A stretch of DNA of 64,000 bases. Source: an uncultured Acidobacteriota bacterium. Its GTDB lineage: Bacteria > Acidobacteriota > Vicinamibacteria > Fen-336. Position numbers: made by a program. Location: positions 3,904,001-3,968,000 of the forward strand of contig OY970399.1 of the NCBI GenBank assembly GCA_963720545.1, written 5' to 3'. Below, in pieces: positions 15,001 through 24,000 of this stretch (position 1 is the stretch's first letter; each line of letters opens with the position of its first letter).

Positions 15001-18000
15001 ACCTGCACCAGGAAATGTTCGGTTGCAGAATCGGCGACGCGCAGTCCTTCCGCGACGCGGGCGGGCCCGCGCAGCGGATCGAACGCGCCGGTTTCCAGCA
15101 CGATGCGCATGTCCTGCGCCGGTTGCACTCCTTGCGCAGCCGCGGGACACGGCAGGATCGTGAGAAGGAGGAGGGCTAGTGAAACTGCCGCGGCAAGGCG
15201 GCGTGTGAACCTTCGAGACACCATTTCGAAACCTCCAAGCGTCGGGATGTGCGCAAACTACCCACTCGGAGCGGTTCGAGTCTTCACACTTCGGTCAGGA
15301 TTTGATGCGAACGCGTCAGGCGCGGCCGGGCACGGCGGTCGCGGCGCGCCGCAGCCACCGGTCGAAGAACCAGTTGCCGATGCGGCACTTGCCGAGCGCC
15401 GTGACGATGTAGCCCATGCGCTCGAGGCCATAGAGGAGCGAGTCGATGCGCTCCGGACCGCCGAGGCTGCTGGTGAGGGTCGTGATCGTCACCTCGCCCT
15501 CGCGCGCGATCGTCAGCAGCATCTCGCGCTCGTCCTTGCCGAGCGTCTGGAAGTCGACCGCGAAGAAGTTCGCGACCATTTCGTCGGCGGCCACCTGCGA
15601 CAGGGTCGCGCCGAGGTCGCGGCTCTCGAACAGGCGGCTCGCGATGAGCTGCACCAGGAACGGGTTGCAGCCGGTGCGGTCGATGATGGTGGCGCGCTCG
15701 TCGCCGGTGAAGTTGCCGCGCGCCAGCAGCTCGCCGGTCTCCTCGGGGGTCAAGCGGCGTCAGGTAGACGGGCGGGATGAAGCCTTGCAGGAACGGGGAA
15801 GTGGCGAAGCTCGTGGTCTCGTCGATCATCGCGAGCCTCTTGGTGGAGGTGAGCACCGAGCGCAGGTCGGGGCCCTTTTGCAGGATGCGCCGCAGCCGCG
15901 CCAGCACCACCGGCGCCTGTTCGGCGACCGTCAGCAGCTCCTCCGCCTCGTCCACCAGCAGCAGCATGCGCCAGCCGCTCTTGACGGTGCGGCGCGCCAG
16001 CGTCGTGAGCATGTCGGGCACCGTGAGGCCCTCGAGCTGGTCGATCTCGACGTCGGTGGCGCGGCGGAACGGGTCGCTGTCCTCGACGCTCTCCAGCAGG
16101 CTGTCGGCCAGCCCGCGGGCGTCGCCGCTGCCCTGCAGGTCCCAGTAGAGCGGCGCGTAGGGGGTCTGCGGATTCTGCAGCACCCGGTACTCGAGCTCCT
16201 TCAGGAGGCTGGTCTTGCCGAGGCGGCGTGCACCCACCACCCACAGCGAGTCGCGTTCGCCGTCGAGGATCTGGCGCACCAGGGAGCCGCGGCCGAAGAA
16301 GTTCTCGCCGCGCACCCAGCTGCCGGCGACGTACGGATTGCGCGCTTCGCTCACCACGCTGCCCATTCTCTCAGGAGACCGCTTGTGCGGCGCTGCCCCC
16401 CGCTTCGTCGGGGGCATCGCCTTCGCGCCCCTCTTCGTAGACGAAGGCTTCGCCGGCCGCTGCGATGTCGGCCGCGGTGACGGTCGAGCGGCCCTCCTCG
16501 AGCATGCGGTTGACCGCATGGATGCACAGCCGCTGGATCGCGTACGGCTTCATGCCGCTGATCCGCAGCACCGCCTCCACCGCGTCGCCCTGGTAGCGGA
16601 AGATGCCCTGGACCGGCTCGCGGATCAGCCCCTCGGCCTCTTCGCGCGAGAACTCCTTCAGCTCGATCTCGTCGAAGAAGTTGTACCAGGGGCTGCCTTC
16701 GCTCTTCCAGTTGCGGCGGATGCCGACGCCGCTCATCACCGCCACCAGGTGCTCGGAGAAGGTCTTCATGAAGATGCTGCGCAGCCGCTGGTTGACGCGG
16801 TCGGAGTACTCGTTCAGCACGTCCACCTCGTCGATGAGCAGCGCCAGCTTGACCTTCTTGGCGGTGCGTCCCTTCAGGTCCTCGATGACGCGCTGCAGGT
16901 CGTGCGCAGAAGTCGCGGCCGTCGTAGTCGTCGTCGTCGGGGCCGAACTTGCAGCGCCGCCATGGCCTCGGGCGAGGGCACCGTGGTCTCGACCACGTCG
17001 GCCATCACGGTGTGGAAGAACGCGGCTTCGGGAACGCCCTGCAGGTCGGAGGCGACCGGGAAGAAGCGGTAGTCGTCGCGGTCGTCCTTCTCGAGCGCCT
17101 TCTTCAGGTGGTGCAGCAGGCTGGTCTTGCCGATGCGTCGCTCGCCCGTGATCATCAGGCTGTTGTGGTGCAGGACGTTGAGGATCCGTGTCAGCAGCTT
17201 CTGCCGGCCGAAGAACATGTCGTCGGCGAGCACCGGCGCGCCGGCGATGTAGGGGTTGAAGCGCCGGTTGACCGCGCGCCGCCGTCGCACGCGCTGCATC
17301 GCGAAGCCGGCGCCGACGAGACCGAGGGCGGTGAGCGCCGCCGCCGGCAGGAAGGCGCGCGTCTCGTAAAAGCGCAGCTGCCGCGTGATGGTGAACGGCT
17401 GCGAGGCGCGCAGCCCCTGGGCGTCGGTCGCGACGATCAGCAACTCGTTGGCGCCGGGCGCCAGCGGGAAGGTGCTGTTGATCGCCTGGGTGCGGGCCGG
17501 CTCGCCGTCTTCGACCGCGGTCGGCCGCAGGTCGGCGACCAGCGCCTGGTTGAGGTAGATCTCGACGCGCGAGAGTTGCCGCTCGTCGCTGACCACCGCC
17601 TCCACCTTGACCGTCGGCTGGTCCACCTTCGGCTGCGGCACCGACGGCGCCATCATGACGATGAGCGGCATGCGGTTGGGGAAGAAGCGCGCCAGCAGCG
17701 AGGCCGCCGTCAGCTCCAGCGAGCGCTCGCGGCGCTGCGCGGCGCGTGCGTTCTGCGGGTCGAGGCGCAGGATTTCCTCGTAGCGCAGCTCGGCCTCGGG
17801 ATGCCTGCCGCTCGTGAACAGGGCATCCGCTTCCGACTCGAGACGGCTGATCTCCGCGCGGCGATCGGTCTCGACGCGCAGGCTGTTGACCCGGTCCTCG
17901 GCCTGGGCGCGCAGGCGGCGCGCTTCGGCGTTCCCGGGATCGGCGGCCGCCTCGGTGAGCGGGCGCAGCGCGTCGGCGAACTGCCCCGCGGCGAACAGGC

Positions 18001-21000: not shown

Positions 21001-24000
21001 GCCAGGCGGGACGGTGCCGCTTCGTCTTCCTGGCGACCGCGCGGCTCAGGCTGGAGTGGCCGAGCAACGGATCCACCGAGTCGTAGCCGAGCATGCGCTG
21101 CGCCATGCGGTGCACGCCGGGGATGGGGATGAGGCGCAGCAGGCGGTCGGTGCGGCGGTAGCGGGAGATCGACCCGCGCAGGTGGCGCAGCTTGGCCACC
21201 GGATCGGCAATGACCTCGGTTTCGCGCTCGAGCGCGCGCAGCAGCGGCTCGCCTGTGTTCACGGACTCCTAAATCCTTTGTGGCCTGCGAATTATAGGAC
21301 ACGAATTTCGGACCCGGCAATGCTTTCGCGAAGCCGATGTGCGCTGGATCCGCCGCCGGGCCCATTGTATGGTTGCGAATCGCCACCATTGTCCCAAATG
21401 CGCAGCTGGCGCGGCTTCCGAGGGATCCCCGCGCCTTGCGGCCGCTCATCGAGGAGGAGTCGCAGGCCTGGGCGGCCGATCTCGACTGGGACTATGCCGA
21501 CGTGGCCCGGGCACTCCTCGCCGGGCTCGAGAACGGCTCGCTGCGCGGCTTCGGCTTCGAGGACTCGGGCAGGGTGGTCGCCTACGGTTACTACCTGCTC
21601 GACGGCCGGCGGGCGGTGCTGGGGTCGCTGTTCGCCTCGGCCGCCCATCGCGGGCGCGGCTACGAGGCGACACTCGTGGACGCCCTGGTGGCCGACGCGC
21701 GCGGCGCCGCGCACGGCCGCCGCATCGAGTGCCAGACGCTTTTCACCAGCGACCAGGCGGTGGACGAGCGGTTCCGCGCGCTCGGCTTCACGAGCCACGA
21801 CCGGCACTATCTCGCCGCATCGCTGCTGGCGGGAGAGGTGCTCGCCGCGCCGGCGATCGCCGGCGCGCGCGGCCTGACGCTTGGCGACATCCCGCAGGCG
21901 GCCGCCGTCATCCACAGCAGCCATCAGGGCACCGTGGACGCCGAGATGAACACCACCTACAAGACCGAGAACCATTGCCGCACTTTCCTCGAGACGTTGA
22001 TCCTGCGTTCGGGCTGCGGCGAATTCGACGCCGAGGCTTCGCTGTTCGTCGAAGGCGCGCCCGGCACAGGTCCGGTCGCTGTGCTGCTCGCGAGCCGCCT
22101 GTCGCGAGACAACGGCCACATCTGCCAGGTGTCGGTGGTGCCGCAGGCGCAGCGCAAGGGTCTCGGCCGCGCGCTCGTGAGCCACGCGCTCGGCGTGTTC
22201 CGCGCGCGCGGCCTGCGGCAGGCGACGCTCAGCGCGACGGTCGCGAACGCGCGCGCCTACGCCCTCTACCGCGACCTCGGCTTCGCGCCGCGGCGCCTCT
22301 TCAAGGCGCACGCGTGGCAAGCGCCCGCATGACCCTTGCGGGCCTCGCGGCGCTGCTCGTCGCCAGCGCTGCAGCGAACGCCGAGCCGCAGCCGCGCGTG
22401 ATGGTGGTGCCGTTCGTCATGCAGCCCGCCTCTGCGGCCTGGGTGGGCGAGTACCTCGCCGACGACATGCCGCGTACCCTGGCGCTCGCCGGCGTCGCCG
22501 CGGTGCCGCGACCGATGCGCACGGCCGCCCACGACGCCTTCGGCCTGGCGCAGGCGCCGCTCTCGCGCGCCACCGCCATCCGCATGGCCGAGGCGCTCGC
22601 GGCCGACCGCGTCGTCATCGGCAGCGGCACGTTCGACACGTCCGGCGTGACGCTCGAGGCGCGCATCCTCGACGTTTCGCGCGGCTCGCTGTCGGCGCCG
22701 CTGCGCGCCTCGGGCAGCCTCGAGACGCTCACCGATGTCGCCTTCTCGCTCGCCTGGGACGTCGCGCTGGCCGGCTCGCCGGGACCAGCCCGCACCCGCG
22801 TCGAAACCGCGCGCGAGCGGGTGCGCCGCCACTACACGGTGCTGCGCGCCTACGGCGAGGCGCTCGTCGCCGGCGACCTGGCGCGCCGCCTGAAGATGCT
22901 CGCCGAGGCCGTTTCCCTGGCGCCCGACTTCGATGCGGCGCGCCTCGACCTGGTGCGCGCGCGTCTCGATGCCCGCGACTTCGCCGCGGCGCTCGAGGAG
23001 GTGCGGCGCATTGCTCCAGGCGCGCCCGCCGCGACCCGGCGCGAGGCCGACTTCCTGCAAGGTGCTGTGCTCTTCGGCCTCGGCCGTTGCGACGAGGCGG
23101 ACGCGCTCTACCAGCGGCTGTCGGCTGCGAACGAAACGGCGGCGGTGCTCGCGAACCGCGCGCTCGCGGTGCTGCGCTCGCCTCGGCCTGCGGCCCTGCG
23201 CGCCGGCTCGGCGCGCGCCTCGGATTTGCTGCGCCAGGCGAACGCGCTCCTGCCGGGGTCCACCGAAGTCACCTTCGACCTCGGCTTCGCGCTCTTTGTC
23301 GAAGGCGATGACGACGCCGCGATCTTCTGGTTGCGCGGCCTGCAGGAGCTCGACCCCGAGGACAACGACGCGCGCGTCGTGCTCGCCTGGGCGCTGCGCC
23401 GCGCCGGCCGCACCGCCGAAGCCGACGCCACGTGGCAGGCGCTCGTCAGCCATTCGCGCTCGCTCTCGGGCATGGCGGCGCCGGACCCCGCGCGCCGGCT
23501 CGAGCGCGTGTTGTCGACGGAAAACCCGTTCGTCCTCGACCCGAACCGCCGCGGCGACTCGGCCGATGCCGCGGGGCTGCGCGACCACGGCGAGCGCGCG
23601 CTCCTGGCGGGCGACCTCGACACCGCGTTTCGCGAGCTGTCGCGCGCCGCGTACCTCAACCCCTACGAAGCCTCGGTGCATCGTTCATTGGCGCAGGTGC
23701 ACGTGCGGCGCGGCGACCGCGAAAACGCCGCCGCCGAGCTGCGCACGTCGCTGTGGTGCGCCGAGAGCACCGCGGTCCGCGTCGAGCTCATGAACCTGTT
23801 CGCCGAGCTCGGCCGCCGCGCCGAGGCCGAGAGCGAAGCGCGCCGCATCCTCAAGGCCGATCCCGGCAACGAGGCGGCCCGCAAGCTCGCGCCAAACGGG
23901 TCGCTATAATGGACGGCAAGCAGCGACATGATCACCCTCCTCCTGGCCGCGGCACTCGCGGCGCAAGCAGCCGGCAATCCGCTCGCACTCACCAAGGCGG

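Follow-up and report, generated by a model that had tools for sequence, protein, structure and literature searches.

Organisation of the locus

The window analysed here, a stretch of 64,000 nucleotides from the genome of a soil bacterium, carries on its minus strand a gene for a wall amidase followed by one for a volactin-type actin (Table 1). The two are spaced by 10 nt, with the amidase stop at 19937-19939, the volactin ATG at 19926 and GGAGG in between. Both reading frames, checked as ORFs and by translation, lie where the survey's finding had placed them, and the range that it gave (15316-21262) holds the pair along with two further genes, which encode a TPR-membrane-ATPase and a second ATPase. 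Each of these is frame-shifted in this assembly. The TPR-membrane-ATPase gene changes between frames -1 and -3 near 16905-16950 and forms one open frame of 828-848 aa in the related loci L007 and L004; the second ATPase gene, whose ATG lies 4 nt past the stop of the former, is one ORF in L007, L004 and L027 but here passes between frames -1 and -2 near 15745-15753, where the coding (minus) strand has five C in a row (on the plus strand, GGGGG at 15745). Of 29 Vicinamibacteria-type loci, 19 contain the TPR-membrane-ATPase; none of the 51 other loci does. A scan of the neighbours gave a GNAT acetyltransferase, a TPR protein, RecG and a subtilase, and no phage genes among those scanned.

Table 1. 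Features of the volactin/amidase locus (positions in the window).
Feature	Position	Strand	Basis
Bitopic membrane N-acetylmuramoyl-L-alanine amidase, Amidase_2 / AmiD-AmpDh-like	19937..21262	-	ORF and translation, 441 aa, GTG start; Pfam, PDB, Foldseek
Amidase cytoplasmic tail (predicted), aa 1-85, four predicted helices	21008..21262	-	Structure model, tail alignment, tail profile
Tail motif D20-L28, DPVAKLRHL	21179..21205	-	Family pattern xPxx[KR][LI][KR][FY][LIF]
Amidase transmembrane helix, aa 84-108	20939..21013	-	Model helix; hydrophobic stretch
Periplasmic folded region of amidase (predicted), aa 145-440	19943..20830	-	pLDDT mostly >90
Pfam Amidase_2 core, aa 219-321	20300-20608	-	Pfam
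Volactin-family actin-like ATPase, 353 aa, full length	18865..19926	-	Pfam Volactin 269.5 bits; Foldseek; structure model
Signal peptide, TPR/coiled-coil periplasmic part, membrane helix, cytoplasmic STAND/AAA-type ATPase	16371..18829	-	Pfam TPR_2 and AAA_16 or nSTAND6 (weak)
Second STAND/AAA-type ATPase, soluble	15316..16366	-	Pfam AAA_22 at 5.7e-7, nSTAND1

A membrane amidase with a conserved tail

Amidase_2 enzymes cut peptidoglycan at the MurNAc-L-Ala bond. The assignment of the upstream protein to this family, already made by the survey, is confirmed by Pfam (PF01510, E 9.8e-15) and extended by sequence matches in the PDB to AmpDh2 (4bj4, 2.2e-5) and AmiD (2bh7, 8e-4), and the structure model (pLDDT 86.5) matched in Foldseek AmpD (2y28, 4.3e-7), then AmpDh2, AmiD and AmpDh3, with several endolysins also among the matches. 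In this model, helices at residues 5-15, 21-42, 48-61 and 74-82 of the tail are followed by the membrane helix and a confident periplasmic fold. RKTKRHR precedes the hydrophobic stretch WLGFAVVGALLAASLFAAA; the protein presumably runs N-in, C-out, which would put the conserved tail in the cytoplasm. The alignment of 65 sequences has H199, H255, A256, G257, W261, H321, H336 and D338 unchanged in every row, with E281 kept in at least 90%; H321 lines up with the His of 'vaH' in AmiD, and none of the tools gave an alignment for the third zinc ligand or the catalytic Lys. AmiD, AmpDh2 and AmpDh3, the periplasmic N-acetylmuramoyl-L-alanine amidases of E. coli and P. aeruginosa, have the same fold and the HAG..W element in common with the volactin-linked enzyme, and the second zinc-ligand His is aligned. 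They are lipoproteins or soluble proteins and have no cytoplasmic tail, whereas the volactin-linked amidase has both such a tail and an inner-membrane anchor, and its family also differs by a conserved extra N-terminal beta region, a long C-terminal helix and a longer H321-D338 spacing.

The tail motif occurs once each in 64 of the 65 amidase ORFs that are not cut by a contig end, and in all five amidases that are not linked to volactin. The survey had described P21 and L25 as invariant; the 65-row alignment bears this out for P21, with L25, like column 55, conserved at 90% or more. Similarly, its DPxAKLR[FY]L helix is a good description of the relatives but not of the window's own copy, in which H27 replaces their F or Y; position 55 is here Gln, where at least 90% of the relatives have Tyr. 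A profile of the tail searched against 1.84 billion proteins returned 116 representatives, of which 115 are collinear with the amidase profile, and all 12 true matches of at least 340 aa carry Amidase_2. Among these 1.84 billion proteins, the conserved tail is confined to this amidase family.

The volactin

The downstream protein scores 269.5 bits (cut-off 35; E 6.4e-80) with the Pfam family Volactin (PF25216), the match covering positions 3-321 of the 321 in the model, in agreement with the full-length membership reported by the survey, and is present as a single copy in the genome. The solved structures closest to its model (pLDDT 89.6, pTM 0.87) are the filament formers MreB (4czk, 1.6e-13), MamK (filament 5ljv, TM 0.69/0.74) and BeeR (8r2n) in Foldseek, and further structural matches are 7q6i (FtsA with FtsN 1-29) and 2wus. 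Its nucleotide motifs DxGT and GG show no variation, and the phosphate-2 motif reads SCGGGMCN against DIGAGTTD in MamK, with Asp replaced by Ser. More distant volactins (38-44% identity) likewise have Ser in this motif (GISxGxGxCNV), so the Ser is not special to amidase-linked copies. Pfam gave no match to the FtsA or PilM families at E up to 0.01, no membrane-binding element was seen in the volactin, and its N-terminus is short and acidic. Canonical MreB is encoded elsewhere in the same genome (497 bits), as the survey had noted; the survey's term 'MreB-independent' says only that MreB is a separate gene.

VolA of Haloferax volcanii (HVO_2015), which also belongs to PF25216, forms dynamic filaments with tips touching the membrane and is the only member of the family studied so far (PMC10869688). 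By analogy with VolA, the window's volactin, with its full-length match at 269 bits, may polymerise, and we rate filament formation as an even chance. Both genes adjoin one for a membrane protein, which in the case of volA is a four-pass CdpA-like protein (PMC12126565) and in the window the amidase; H. volcanii is without peptidoglycan, unlike the bacterium that bears the pair.

Conservation of the gene pair

The survey's count was reproduced: of 80 related loci, 72 have the amidase directly upstream of volactin in the same orientation, and three of the eight exceptions have no room upstream (L013, L028 and L080; the others are L042, L047, L050, L053 and L070). In 70 of the 72 linked loci, no more than 113 nt separate the stop from the start, and volactin and the amidase are the only gene clusters common to all three lineages, other neighbours being lineage-specific. 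Each of the five genomes with an unlinked volactin has a single amidase homologue, which bears the tail motif, and co-occurrence at the genome level thus survives the loss of linkage. Of 401 Acidobacteriota genomes, 14 have a strong volactin; the amidase family (at E below 1e-100) is present in 11 of these and in none of the other 387, and among 121 genomes of the Steroidobacter family both genes occur in the same six and neither in the remaining 115. Volactin can do without this amidase: in the three volactin-bearing Acidobacteriota that have none, its neighbours are instead a class A PBP, ParA/MinD-like ATPases and a receiver domain. Conservation of the pair is tight and extends across phyla. 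The gammaproteobacterial copies group with Vicinamibacteria in both gene trees (midpoint root; support 0.945 and 1.0), which is consistent with joint transfer of the two genes.

Predicted binding of the tail to volactin

When the tail was modelled with volactin, the binding scores were 0.83, 0.83 and 0.82, against 0.00-0.01 for the controls. Among solved pairs, 116 of 157 reach this score mark, as do 2 of 215 mismatched pairs; the calibration applies only roughly, since the model used our own alignments. The control score of 0.56, from which the survey had concluded that the cleft is sticky, was not approached by any of our controls. At least 56% of contacts agree between runs, with partner pLDDT of at least 68. 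The interface is predicted to involve tail residues 21, 22, 24-26, 28 and 29, among them the conserved motif residues, and volactin residues 185, 189, 192-193, 211-214, 216, 289-291, 293, 295, 347 and 350-351. The motif helix would sit in a cleft which we take, from fold topology, to be the equivalent of actin's barbed-end cleft. Many solved structures have a helix in an actin cleft, and the pose could be a learned bias of the model. Cleft residues F/L185, N192, F/Y193, S/T213, L290 and P291 are much alike in three amidase-less volactins, and no co-variation signal was seen. We consider direct binding of the tail to volactin likely.

A proposed two-protein module and its precedents

The reading that we favour, and hold to be somewhat probable, is that of a two-protein module in which the amidase tail docks on volactin and the actin places or clusters the amidase. 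The amidase would cross the inner membrane once, with its zinc-amidase domain in the periplasm and the 85-residue N-terminal tail in the cytoplasm; the AmiD/AmpDh-like domain could strip peptide stems off peptidoglycan, and its candidate catalytic residues are the same in every lineage, a sign that selection acts on the enzyme activity. The helix xPxxKLRxL is predicted to enter the cleft that separates subdomains IA and IIA of volactin, which would be held at the membrane through the amidase only, given that no membrane-binding element was seen in the actin itself. If this cleft is where the subunits of an actin-type filament touch one another lengthwise, the tail would be able to reach only unassembled subunits or a single end of the filament, like ParR on ParM. 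The membrane-touching tips of VolA filaments would fit such an end-binding partner (PMC10869688), and we put forward the end-anchoring of volactin filaments only tentatively, as a doubtful refinement. The survey's proposal of an actin-guided wall-cutting machine is partly supported, namely in its protein families, the conserved pair, the tail and the predicted binding, whereas polymerisation, ATP hydrolysis and the positioning or gating of wall cutting are its conjectural part; the pair is probably an unstudied way of tying the bacterial cytoskeleton to wall remodelling.

PilM-PilN, FtsA-FtsN and MreB-RodZ each join an actin-fold ATPase to the cytoplasmic N-terminal region of a partner that crosses the membrane once and lies mainly in the periplasm, an arrangement like that of volactin and the amidase, although these ATPases belong to other actin-fold families with other binding sites and none has an amidase as partner. 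In ParMRC plasmid segregation, the C-terminal helix of ParR binds the barbed end of ParM (PMC6599009). The helix lies there in the IA/IIA (1 and 3) cleft, so that the adaptor rides on filament ends and monomers. ParR is a centromere-binding protein and the candidate adaptor of volactin a membrane enzyme; volactin is not a ParM by sequence, and the equivalence of the clefts is drawn from topology, not superposition. A cytoskeleton that steers a wall hydrolase, which the survey regarded as new, has precedents. In Hyphomonas neptunium and Rhodospirillum rubrum, the bitopic M23 endopeptidase LmdC has an N-terminal tail in the cytoplasm to which the bactofilin BacA binds, and there, as here, the hydrolase gene precedes the cytoskeletal one in a putative operon, the hydrolase is bitopic with intact zinc residues, a conserved tail (in our case by prediction) docks on a cytoplasmic polymer, and the module is kept across many species (PMC10945521). 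BacA is a bactofilin polymer, LmdC a DD-endopeptidase and its tail element a beta-hairpin, whereas volactin has the actin fold, its partner is an Amidase_2 enzyme and the tail element is predicted to be helical. In Bacillus subtilis, the actin homologue MreBH interacts with the hydrolase LytE and helps to localise it, as proposed for volactin, although LytE is a secreted endopeptidase without a membrane tail and the two genes are unpaired (PMC3817527). Against these precedents, the volactin pair would be a variation on a known theme.

The same contact could also be put to another use, with volactin as a non-polymerising actin-fold ATPase switch that binds the tail and changes the oligomerisation or activity of the amidase according to its nucleotide, without a filament. 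This would match the architecture of PilM-PilN and FtsA-FtsN, the FtsA-FtsN complex among the structural matches and the loss of Asp from phosphate 2, and a site in the presumed filament-contact cleft means that tail binding could compete with polymerisation. Yet the best structural matches are all filament formers, the Ser is kept in more distant volactins, FtsA and PilM profiles do not match at E up to 0.01, and the only family member studied so far polymerises (PMC10869688); we consider the switch unlikely. We give little credence to the idea that the amidase is mainly an anchor rather than cargo, through which cytomotive, ParM-like volactin filaments would link other cargo, in one clade DNA, to the wall, with cutting secondary or a means to seat the anchor. 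The binding of ParM barbed ends by ParR (PMC6599009), the DNA partitioning aided by salactin (PMC10869688) and the HU-type domain fused to some volactins, described below, are in its favour, but the fusion is limited to one clade, the window's volactin has just its short acidic N-terminus, HU domains can serve protein-protein contacts (PMC5499826), and the candidate catalytic residues do not vary in any lineage.

It is also true that linkage and co-occurrence by themselves are no proof of contact, and that the cleft is alike in amidase-linked and amidase-less volactins, as would be expected if the two proteins were co-regulated and functionally related, for example in one wall-remodelling pathway, while the tail binds something else. 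With the large gap between binding scores and controls, an interface on the conserved motif, a tail found only with this amidase and an amidase found only in volactin genomes, this seems very unlikely. A lysis cassette of phage or mobile origin, made of an endolysin-type Amidase_2 and a phage actin, is hardly credible as an account of the pair: Amidase_2 is common in endolysins, several of which are fold matches, and the pair appears to have crossed phyla, but its neighbours are of the kinds named above, with no phage genes among those scanned, there is one copy per genome with lineage-specific chromosomal flanks, and an 85-aa cytoplasmic tail before the membrane helix is unlike the signal-anchor of endolysins.

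HU-volactin fusions

A new lead is the fusion of volactin, in one open frame, with an HU/IHF-type DNA-binding domain, seen in seven of the 80 loci (L042, L047, L050, L053, L070, L073 and L078), which form one clade (support 0.974). Pfam recognises the domain as Bac_DNA_binding in five (E 5.8e-18 to 6.1e-11), and the other two were recognised by sequence inspection. Salactin, which is related to volactin, helps DNA partitioning (PMC10869688), and HU domains may also make protein-protein contacts (PMC5499826). The genomes concerned keep the tail-bearing amidase, adjacent to the fusion in two and elsewhere in five, and gene callers annotate the HU-volactin as a single protein of 457-470 aa.

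A conserved amidase-volactin gene pair

The operon region of the window, of about 70% G+C, comprises four genes, all on the minus strand, and opens with a bitopic membrane amidase followed by a volactin, an actin-like protein of Pfam family PF25216; the amidase stop lies 10 nt from the volactin ATG, and a GGAGG stands just upstream of that ATG. The survey's finding that these two genes form a pair is borne out by linkage as well as by co-occurrence. In 72 of the 80 closest volactin loci from other genomes a same-strand amidase gene lies immediately upstream of volactin (3 of the 8 misses have no upstream room), with a gap that exceeds 113 nt in just 2 of the 72. 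Among 401 evenly sampled Acidobacteriota genomes, with the amidase family called at E below 1e-100, a strong volactin was found in 14 and the amidase family in 11, all within those 14, as against 0 of the other 387, in which just weak, domain-only amidase matches (1e-11 to 1e-13) were seen. Of 121 genomes sampled from the Steroidobacter family, the identical 6 hold both genes and the remaining 115 hold neither; volactin occurs in 2 of 201 genomes of an order-level sample around Steroidobacter. Chance adjacency of the two genes is ruled out by these co-occurrence counts.

Features of the operon and of related loci (L, loci fetched from other genomes)
Feature	Position	Strand	Basis or remark
Amidase gene, 441 aa	19937-21262	(-)	ORF translation
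Volactin gene, 353 aa	18865-19926	(-)	ORF translation
Gene for signal peptide, TPR/coiled-coil, one membrane helix and STAND/AAA-type ATPase	16371-18829, start 18829	(-)	split ORF
Second ATPase gene	15316-16366, start 16366, 4 nt past preceding stop	(-)	split ORF
HU-volactin	L042:6557-7966		HU and volactin in one open frame
HU-volactin	L047:6605-7966		HU and volactin in one open frame
HU-volactin	L050:6608-7966		HU and volactin in one open frame
HU-volactin	L053:4224-5600		HU and volactin in one open frame
HU-volactin	L070:6734-8011		HU and volactin in one open frame
HU-volactin	L073:about 5175-6545		tblastn or translation
HU-volactin	L078:about 5290-6619		tblastn or translation
Bitopic Amidase_3 then actin-like gene	L094:4760-6846		Amidase_3 neighbour at both loci fetched
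Bitopic Amidase_3 then actin-like gene	L093:4754-6840		Amidase_3 neighbour at both loci fetched

All-against-all clustering of the 3629 ORFs of at least 100 aa from the 80 loci yielded volactin and the amidase as the only clusters common to all three lineages, these being, by the titles of the records, a Vicinamibacteria-type, a Steroidobacteraceae-type and a mostly Blastocatellia-type. A third cluster, found at 66 loci, was rejected as a conserved neighbour: 4 of its 217 ORFs lie on the coding strand, and it is taken to consist of antisense ORFs of these GC-rich genes. In five genomes with an unlinked volactin, exactly one amidase homologue each was found elsewhere (E 1e-66 to 1e-75), all with the tail motif. 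The gammaproteobacterial copies group with Vicinamibacteria and not with other Acidobacteriota in the trees of both genes (support 0.945 and 1.0), and the mean identities point the same way, with 41.9% versus about 30% for the amidase and 55.8% versus 53.0% and 50.3% for volactin; with rooting by midpoint only, trees and identities are consistent with transfer of the pair as a unit. The pair is also carried by cultured Steroidobacter and Peristeroidobacter species (L049, L051, L054, L057 and L059), so that binding, polymerisation and knock-out work would be feasible and worth bench effort. In one genome (G226:C8:107362-108681), the amidase match beside volactin has one in-frame TAG.

At 19 of the 29 loci of Vicinamibacteria type, volactin is accompanied by the two ATPase genes that complete the operon, which lie downstream of it or, at some loci, upstream on the opposite strand. 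Both ATPase genes are single ORFs in relatives and are broken across reading frames in the window, the first near 16905-16950, seemingly by two indels, and the second where the coding strand has five consecutive C (GGGGG at 15745, plus strand); either assembly error or decay would account for the breaks. The operon is flanked on one side by genes for a GNAT acetyltransferase, a TPR protein and RecG, and on the other by a subtilase with an outer-membrane barrel; no DNA-binding adaptor was found among these scanned neighbours. The subtilase (Peptidase_S8; window 12126-15224), on the same strand and just downstream of the operon, has PPC and Ig-like domains ahead of its C-terminal beta-barrel. 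Since the genome, beside its single volactin, holds a separate canonical MreB (497 bits), one more Amidase_2 and two Amidase_3 genes, the pair is an accessory system and not the sole actin or amidase of the cell.

The two proteins

Both family model and fold place the 441-aa protein with Amidase_2 enzymes of the AmiD-AmpDh type. The Pfam match (E 9.8e-15, aa 219-321) reaches 55.5 bits against a cut-off of 26, and the structural model (pLDDT 86.5) consists of short N-terminal helices (5-15, 21-42, 48-61 and 74-82), a membrane helix (84-108), a disordered linker and a confident domain (145-440), for which Foldseek returned AmpD (4.3e-7), AmpDh2 (2.3e-6), AmiD (3.0e-6) and also AmpDh3, within a range of 4e-7 to 1e-4; AmpDh2 and AmiD are likewise the nearest solved chains by sequence. 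Among 65 amidase homologues, H199, H255-A256-G257, W261, H321, H336 and D338 show no variation, and E281 is kept in at least 90%. In the alignment to AmiD, H321 pairs with a His and E281 with the Glu of AmiD 'iElen', whereas H199 and D338, whose roles are assigned from the family and not from a tool-made alignment, we take to be zinc ligands (the family zinc set being His, His, and Asp or Cys); the invariant H336 presumably stands where the catalytic Lys would be expected. Because these candidate zinc and catalytic residues are conserved, the amidase looks catalytically competent, with the MurNAc-L-Ala bond as its putative target. A basic RKTKRHR before the membrane helix and a long, charged N-terminus without a signal peptide argue for a topology in which the tail lies in the cytoplasm and the enzyme domain in the periplasm.

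The 353-aa protein matches the Volactin model over positions 3-321 of 321 (E 6.4e-80, 269.5 bits against a cut-off of 35), and Pfam otherwise reports just weak Salactin and weak MreB_Mbl matches. The model passed its cut-off in 1 of 14 control genomes, with H. volcanii among those that passed and the sole one in the Steroidobacter-centred samples. The predicted structure (pLDDT 89.6, pTM 0.87) resembles MreB (E about 1e-13), the MamK filament (TM 0.69/0.74), BeeR and actin, the best Foldseek matches being filament formers, and MamK is the nearest solved protein by sequence profile (8.6e-5). G31, D33, G35, T36, G201-G203 and G303-G304 are invariant, as are the phosphate-1 and adenosine motifs, and with this actin fold and these nucleotide motifs the window protein belongs among the volactins. 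The phosphate-2 motif SCGGGMCN (aa 199-206, window 19303-19326), invariant in 69 sequences, departs from MamK DIGAGTTD, the MamK Asp pairing with an invariant Ser; a related Ser-containing motif, GISxGxGxCNV, is found in more distant volactins of 38-44% identity. No amphipathic or hydrophobic membrane-binding end was seen in the sequence or model of volactin. The 120 closest relatives listed are annotated as 'hypothetical', 'actin-like ATPase' or, wrongly, 'FtsA'.

The amidase tail and its predicted contact with volactin

The N-terminal tail of the amidase, its residues 1-85, contains the pattern xPxx[KR][LI][KR][FY][LIF] once each in 64 of 65 amidase ORFs uncut by a contig end, the exception being that of L025. 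More than one helix is conserved in the tail alignment: the motif is preceded by an amphipathic helix and followed by a second conserved element, VPxxxxRxxxYRxxGL. The window tail has a His at aa 27 (21182-21184) within the motif, where relatives have Phe or Tyr, and a Gln at aa 55 (21098-21100) within the second element, a position that is Tyr in at least 90% of relatives. When a profile built from residues 1-85 was searched in 1.84 billion representative proteins, just 116 matches had E up to 1e-3. Most of them are short N-terminal fragments, and over whatever length they cover, 115 of the 116 follow the full amidase profile collinearly, beginning at the N-terminus. Among 36 matches scanned in Pfam, a selection of those of about 185 aa or longer, all 12 true tail matches of at least 340 aa carry Amidase_2. 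The sole non-amidase match, a 2011-aa protein (P0106, E 1.2e-4), is one that the amidase profile does not match. No carrier outside the amidase family was thus found among the 116, mostly fragmentary, matches, and since the 12 long ones all carry Amidase_2 and 115 are collinear with the amidase, the tail would be a signature of this amidase family alone.

One complex prediction paired the volactin alignment with residues 1-85 of the amidase alignment. The tail scored 0.83, 0.83 and 0.82, the best control 0.01; this mark is attained by 116 of 157 solved complexes and by 2 of 215 mismatched pairs, a calibration that is only rough here because the alignments were our own. Contact agreement between runs was at least 56% and the pLDDT of the partner at least 68. 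The predicted interface spans the conserved helix and motif of the tail (residues 5, 8, 11-12, 15, 21-22, 24-26, 28-29, 31-32, 63 and 65-66) and involves volactin residues 185, 189, 192-193, 211-214, 216, 289-291, 293, 295, 347 and 350-351, which the model places on four elements. By topology these are the helix linking IA to IIA (179-187, with its loop), the hairpin that follows the phosphate-2 loop (211-216), a loop of IIA (289-295) and the C-terminal helix (340-350). We take the four to line the hydrophobic barbed-end cleft of actin, and the predicted tail site would accordingly correspond to that cleft (IA/IIA). The earlier interpretation is supported in part: a physical coupling of amidase and volactin is likely, filament guidance of wall cutting is conjectural, and the novelty claimed was too broad.

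Other readings of the cleft bear on this prediction. Solved complexes with a helix in an actin cleft are many, and the predicted pose could echo them. In a comparison for cleft-tail co-variation, cleft residues did not separate amidase-linked from amidase-less volactins, and because they are much alike in the latter, the cleft either serves some common purpose, for example filament contact, or accepts varied partners.

HU-volactins and volactins without the amidase

At 7 of the 80 loci, a single open frame encodes both an HU/IHF-type DNA-binding domain and volactin, with linkers of varying length between them. Pfam supports the HU domain in five of the seven fusions (E 5.8e-18 to 6.1e-11), those at L073 and L078 being read from tblastn or translation, and the seven form one clade (support 0.974). 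Gene callers record the fusion as proteins of 457-470 aa, and word search found two close clusters. In the five fusions checked at the DNA level, the actin domain is preceded by an internal ATG with GGAGGA and 3 nt before it, and a short volactin product may therefore exist alongside the long one. The amidase lies immediately upstream at L073 and L078 and elsewhere in the genome for the other five. At those five (L042, L047, L050, L053 and L070), the genes downstream of volactin include one of CcsA type, for cytochrome c assembly, and hemA in 4 of the 5 loci scanned, and at L053 a monofunctional transglycosylase gene (2826-3599) lies upstream.

Three of the 14 volactin-bearing Acidobacteriota are without the amidase, and their neighbours differ. 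In one (L087:3760-7431, genome G371) the gene directly after volactin encodes a class A PBP with Transgly and Transpeptidase domains. Ahead of the membrane helix, the open frame of this PBP carries an additional stretch of about 140 residues, receiver-like by eye, in which Pfam calls no receiver domain. In the other two (L088:5128-7882, G366; L089:5806-8218, G203) a ParA/MinD-like ATPase gene follows; G366 has a Response_reg domain (2e-8) upstream in the open frame of volactin, and G203 an MreB-like_C actin homologue upstream.

Known systems and a possible mechanism

The idea of a cytoskeleton steering a wall hydrolase, put forward in the survey as new, has precedents in BacA-LmdC (PMC10945521) and, as an older case, in MreBH-LytE, in which an actin homologue places a hydrolase (PMC3817527). 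BacA-LmdC is the closest working analogue: it comprises a putative lmdC-bacA operon, a bitopic hydrolase with intact zinc residues and a conserved cytoplasmic tail motif that binds the BacA polymer, with a peptide KD of about 15 uM (PMC10945521). As there, the genes for hydrolase and polymer are adjacent and kept together across species (72/80 loci), and the hydrolase is bitopic with a conserved N-terminal putative docking element, probably cytoplasmic. Unlike BacA-LmdC, a bactofilin with an M23 endopeptidase, the present proteins are Volactin and Amidase_2 by Pfam, so that the pair would work alike without being a member of those families; the module differs in all its parts, namely a volactin-family actin, an Amidase_2 enzyme and a helical tail predicted in the actin cleft. 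A volactin-type actin would be the third polymer type wired to wall hydrolases, after bactofilins and MreB paralogues, through a helix-in-cleft contact. A literature search of papers open without subscription found no description of the amidase-volactin pair, and none of the titles on 'volactin' concerned bacteria; the pairing would give bacterial volactins a first partner and a likely role.

Dynamic, ATP-dependent volactin filaments are known for H. volcanii VolA only. These filaments are reported never to run along the membrane, which they meet only at their tips, and to share the dynamic instability of ParM (PMC10869688). The volA gene is adjoined by one for a CdpA-like four-pass membrane protein (PMC12126565), papers being our sole source for the archaeal gene context. 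In ParM, the pocket of this cleft receives the neighbouring protomer, and ParR attaches to barbed ends (PMC6599009); unlike in ParMRC, the window actin is not of the ParM family, and no ParR-like centromere-binding partner was found among the neighbours scanned.

If the cleft equivalence holds, the tail would bind volactin monomers or one filament end, because its predicted site is equated with the barbed-end cleft. An end-binding tail would fit both the VolA filament tips on the membrane and the CdpA-like neighbour of volA, and the helix-in-cleft contact suggests how volactin filament tips attach to the membrane, an open point in H. volcanii. Volactin would form dynamic, ParM-like filaments across the cytoplasm, tails of wall-bound amidases would capture their barbed ends, and polymerisation would set the peptidoglycan cutter at defined envelope sites; in the HU-volactin clade, the nucleoid would also be tied to amidase sites. 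This joint reading, in which filament-end capture places wall cutting and the HU clade adds a nucleoid tie, we consider unlikely. If true, it would describe an actin machine coupling chromosome position to local wall cleavage, with a logic that it shares with archaeal volactin and its CdpA-like membrane neighbour. The HU fusion links volactin to DNA in one lineage, and the amidase may accordingly serve as anchor instead of cargo.

A parallel Amidase_3 pair

A different actin-like clade with marginal Volactin hits (38-39 bits) was found in all 3 sampled genomes (G012, G031 and G047) of another Acidobacteriota family. Because a bitopic Amidase_3 is paired with the actin-like gene at L093 and L094, pairs of this kind, with a bitopic amidase beside an actin-like protein, may have originated on more than one occasion. 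At these two loci the Amidase_3 combines one membrane helix with a basic tail, about 45 aa long, in the cytoplasm, and its gene is followed directly by the actin-like gene (MreB_Mbl 58.6 bits, Volactin 41.4 bits, with a canonical DxGxGT phosphate-2 motif) and then by a Peptidase_C69 gene.
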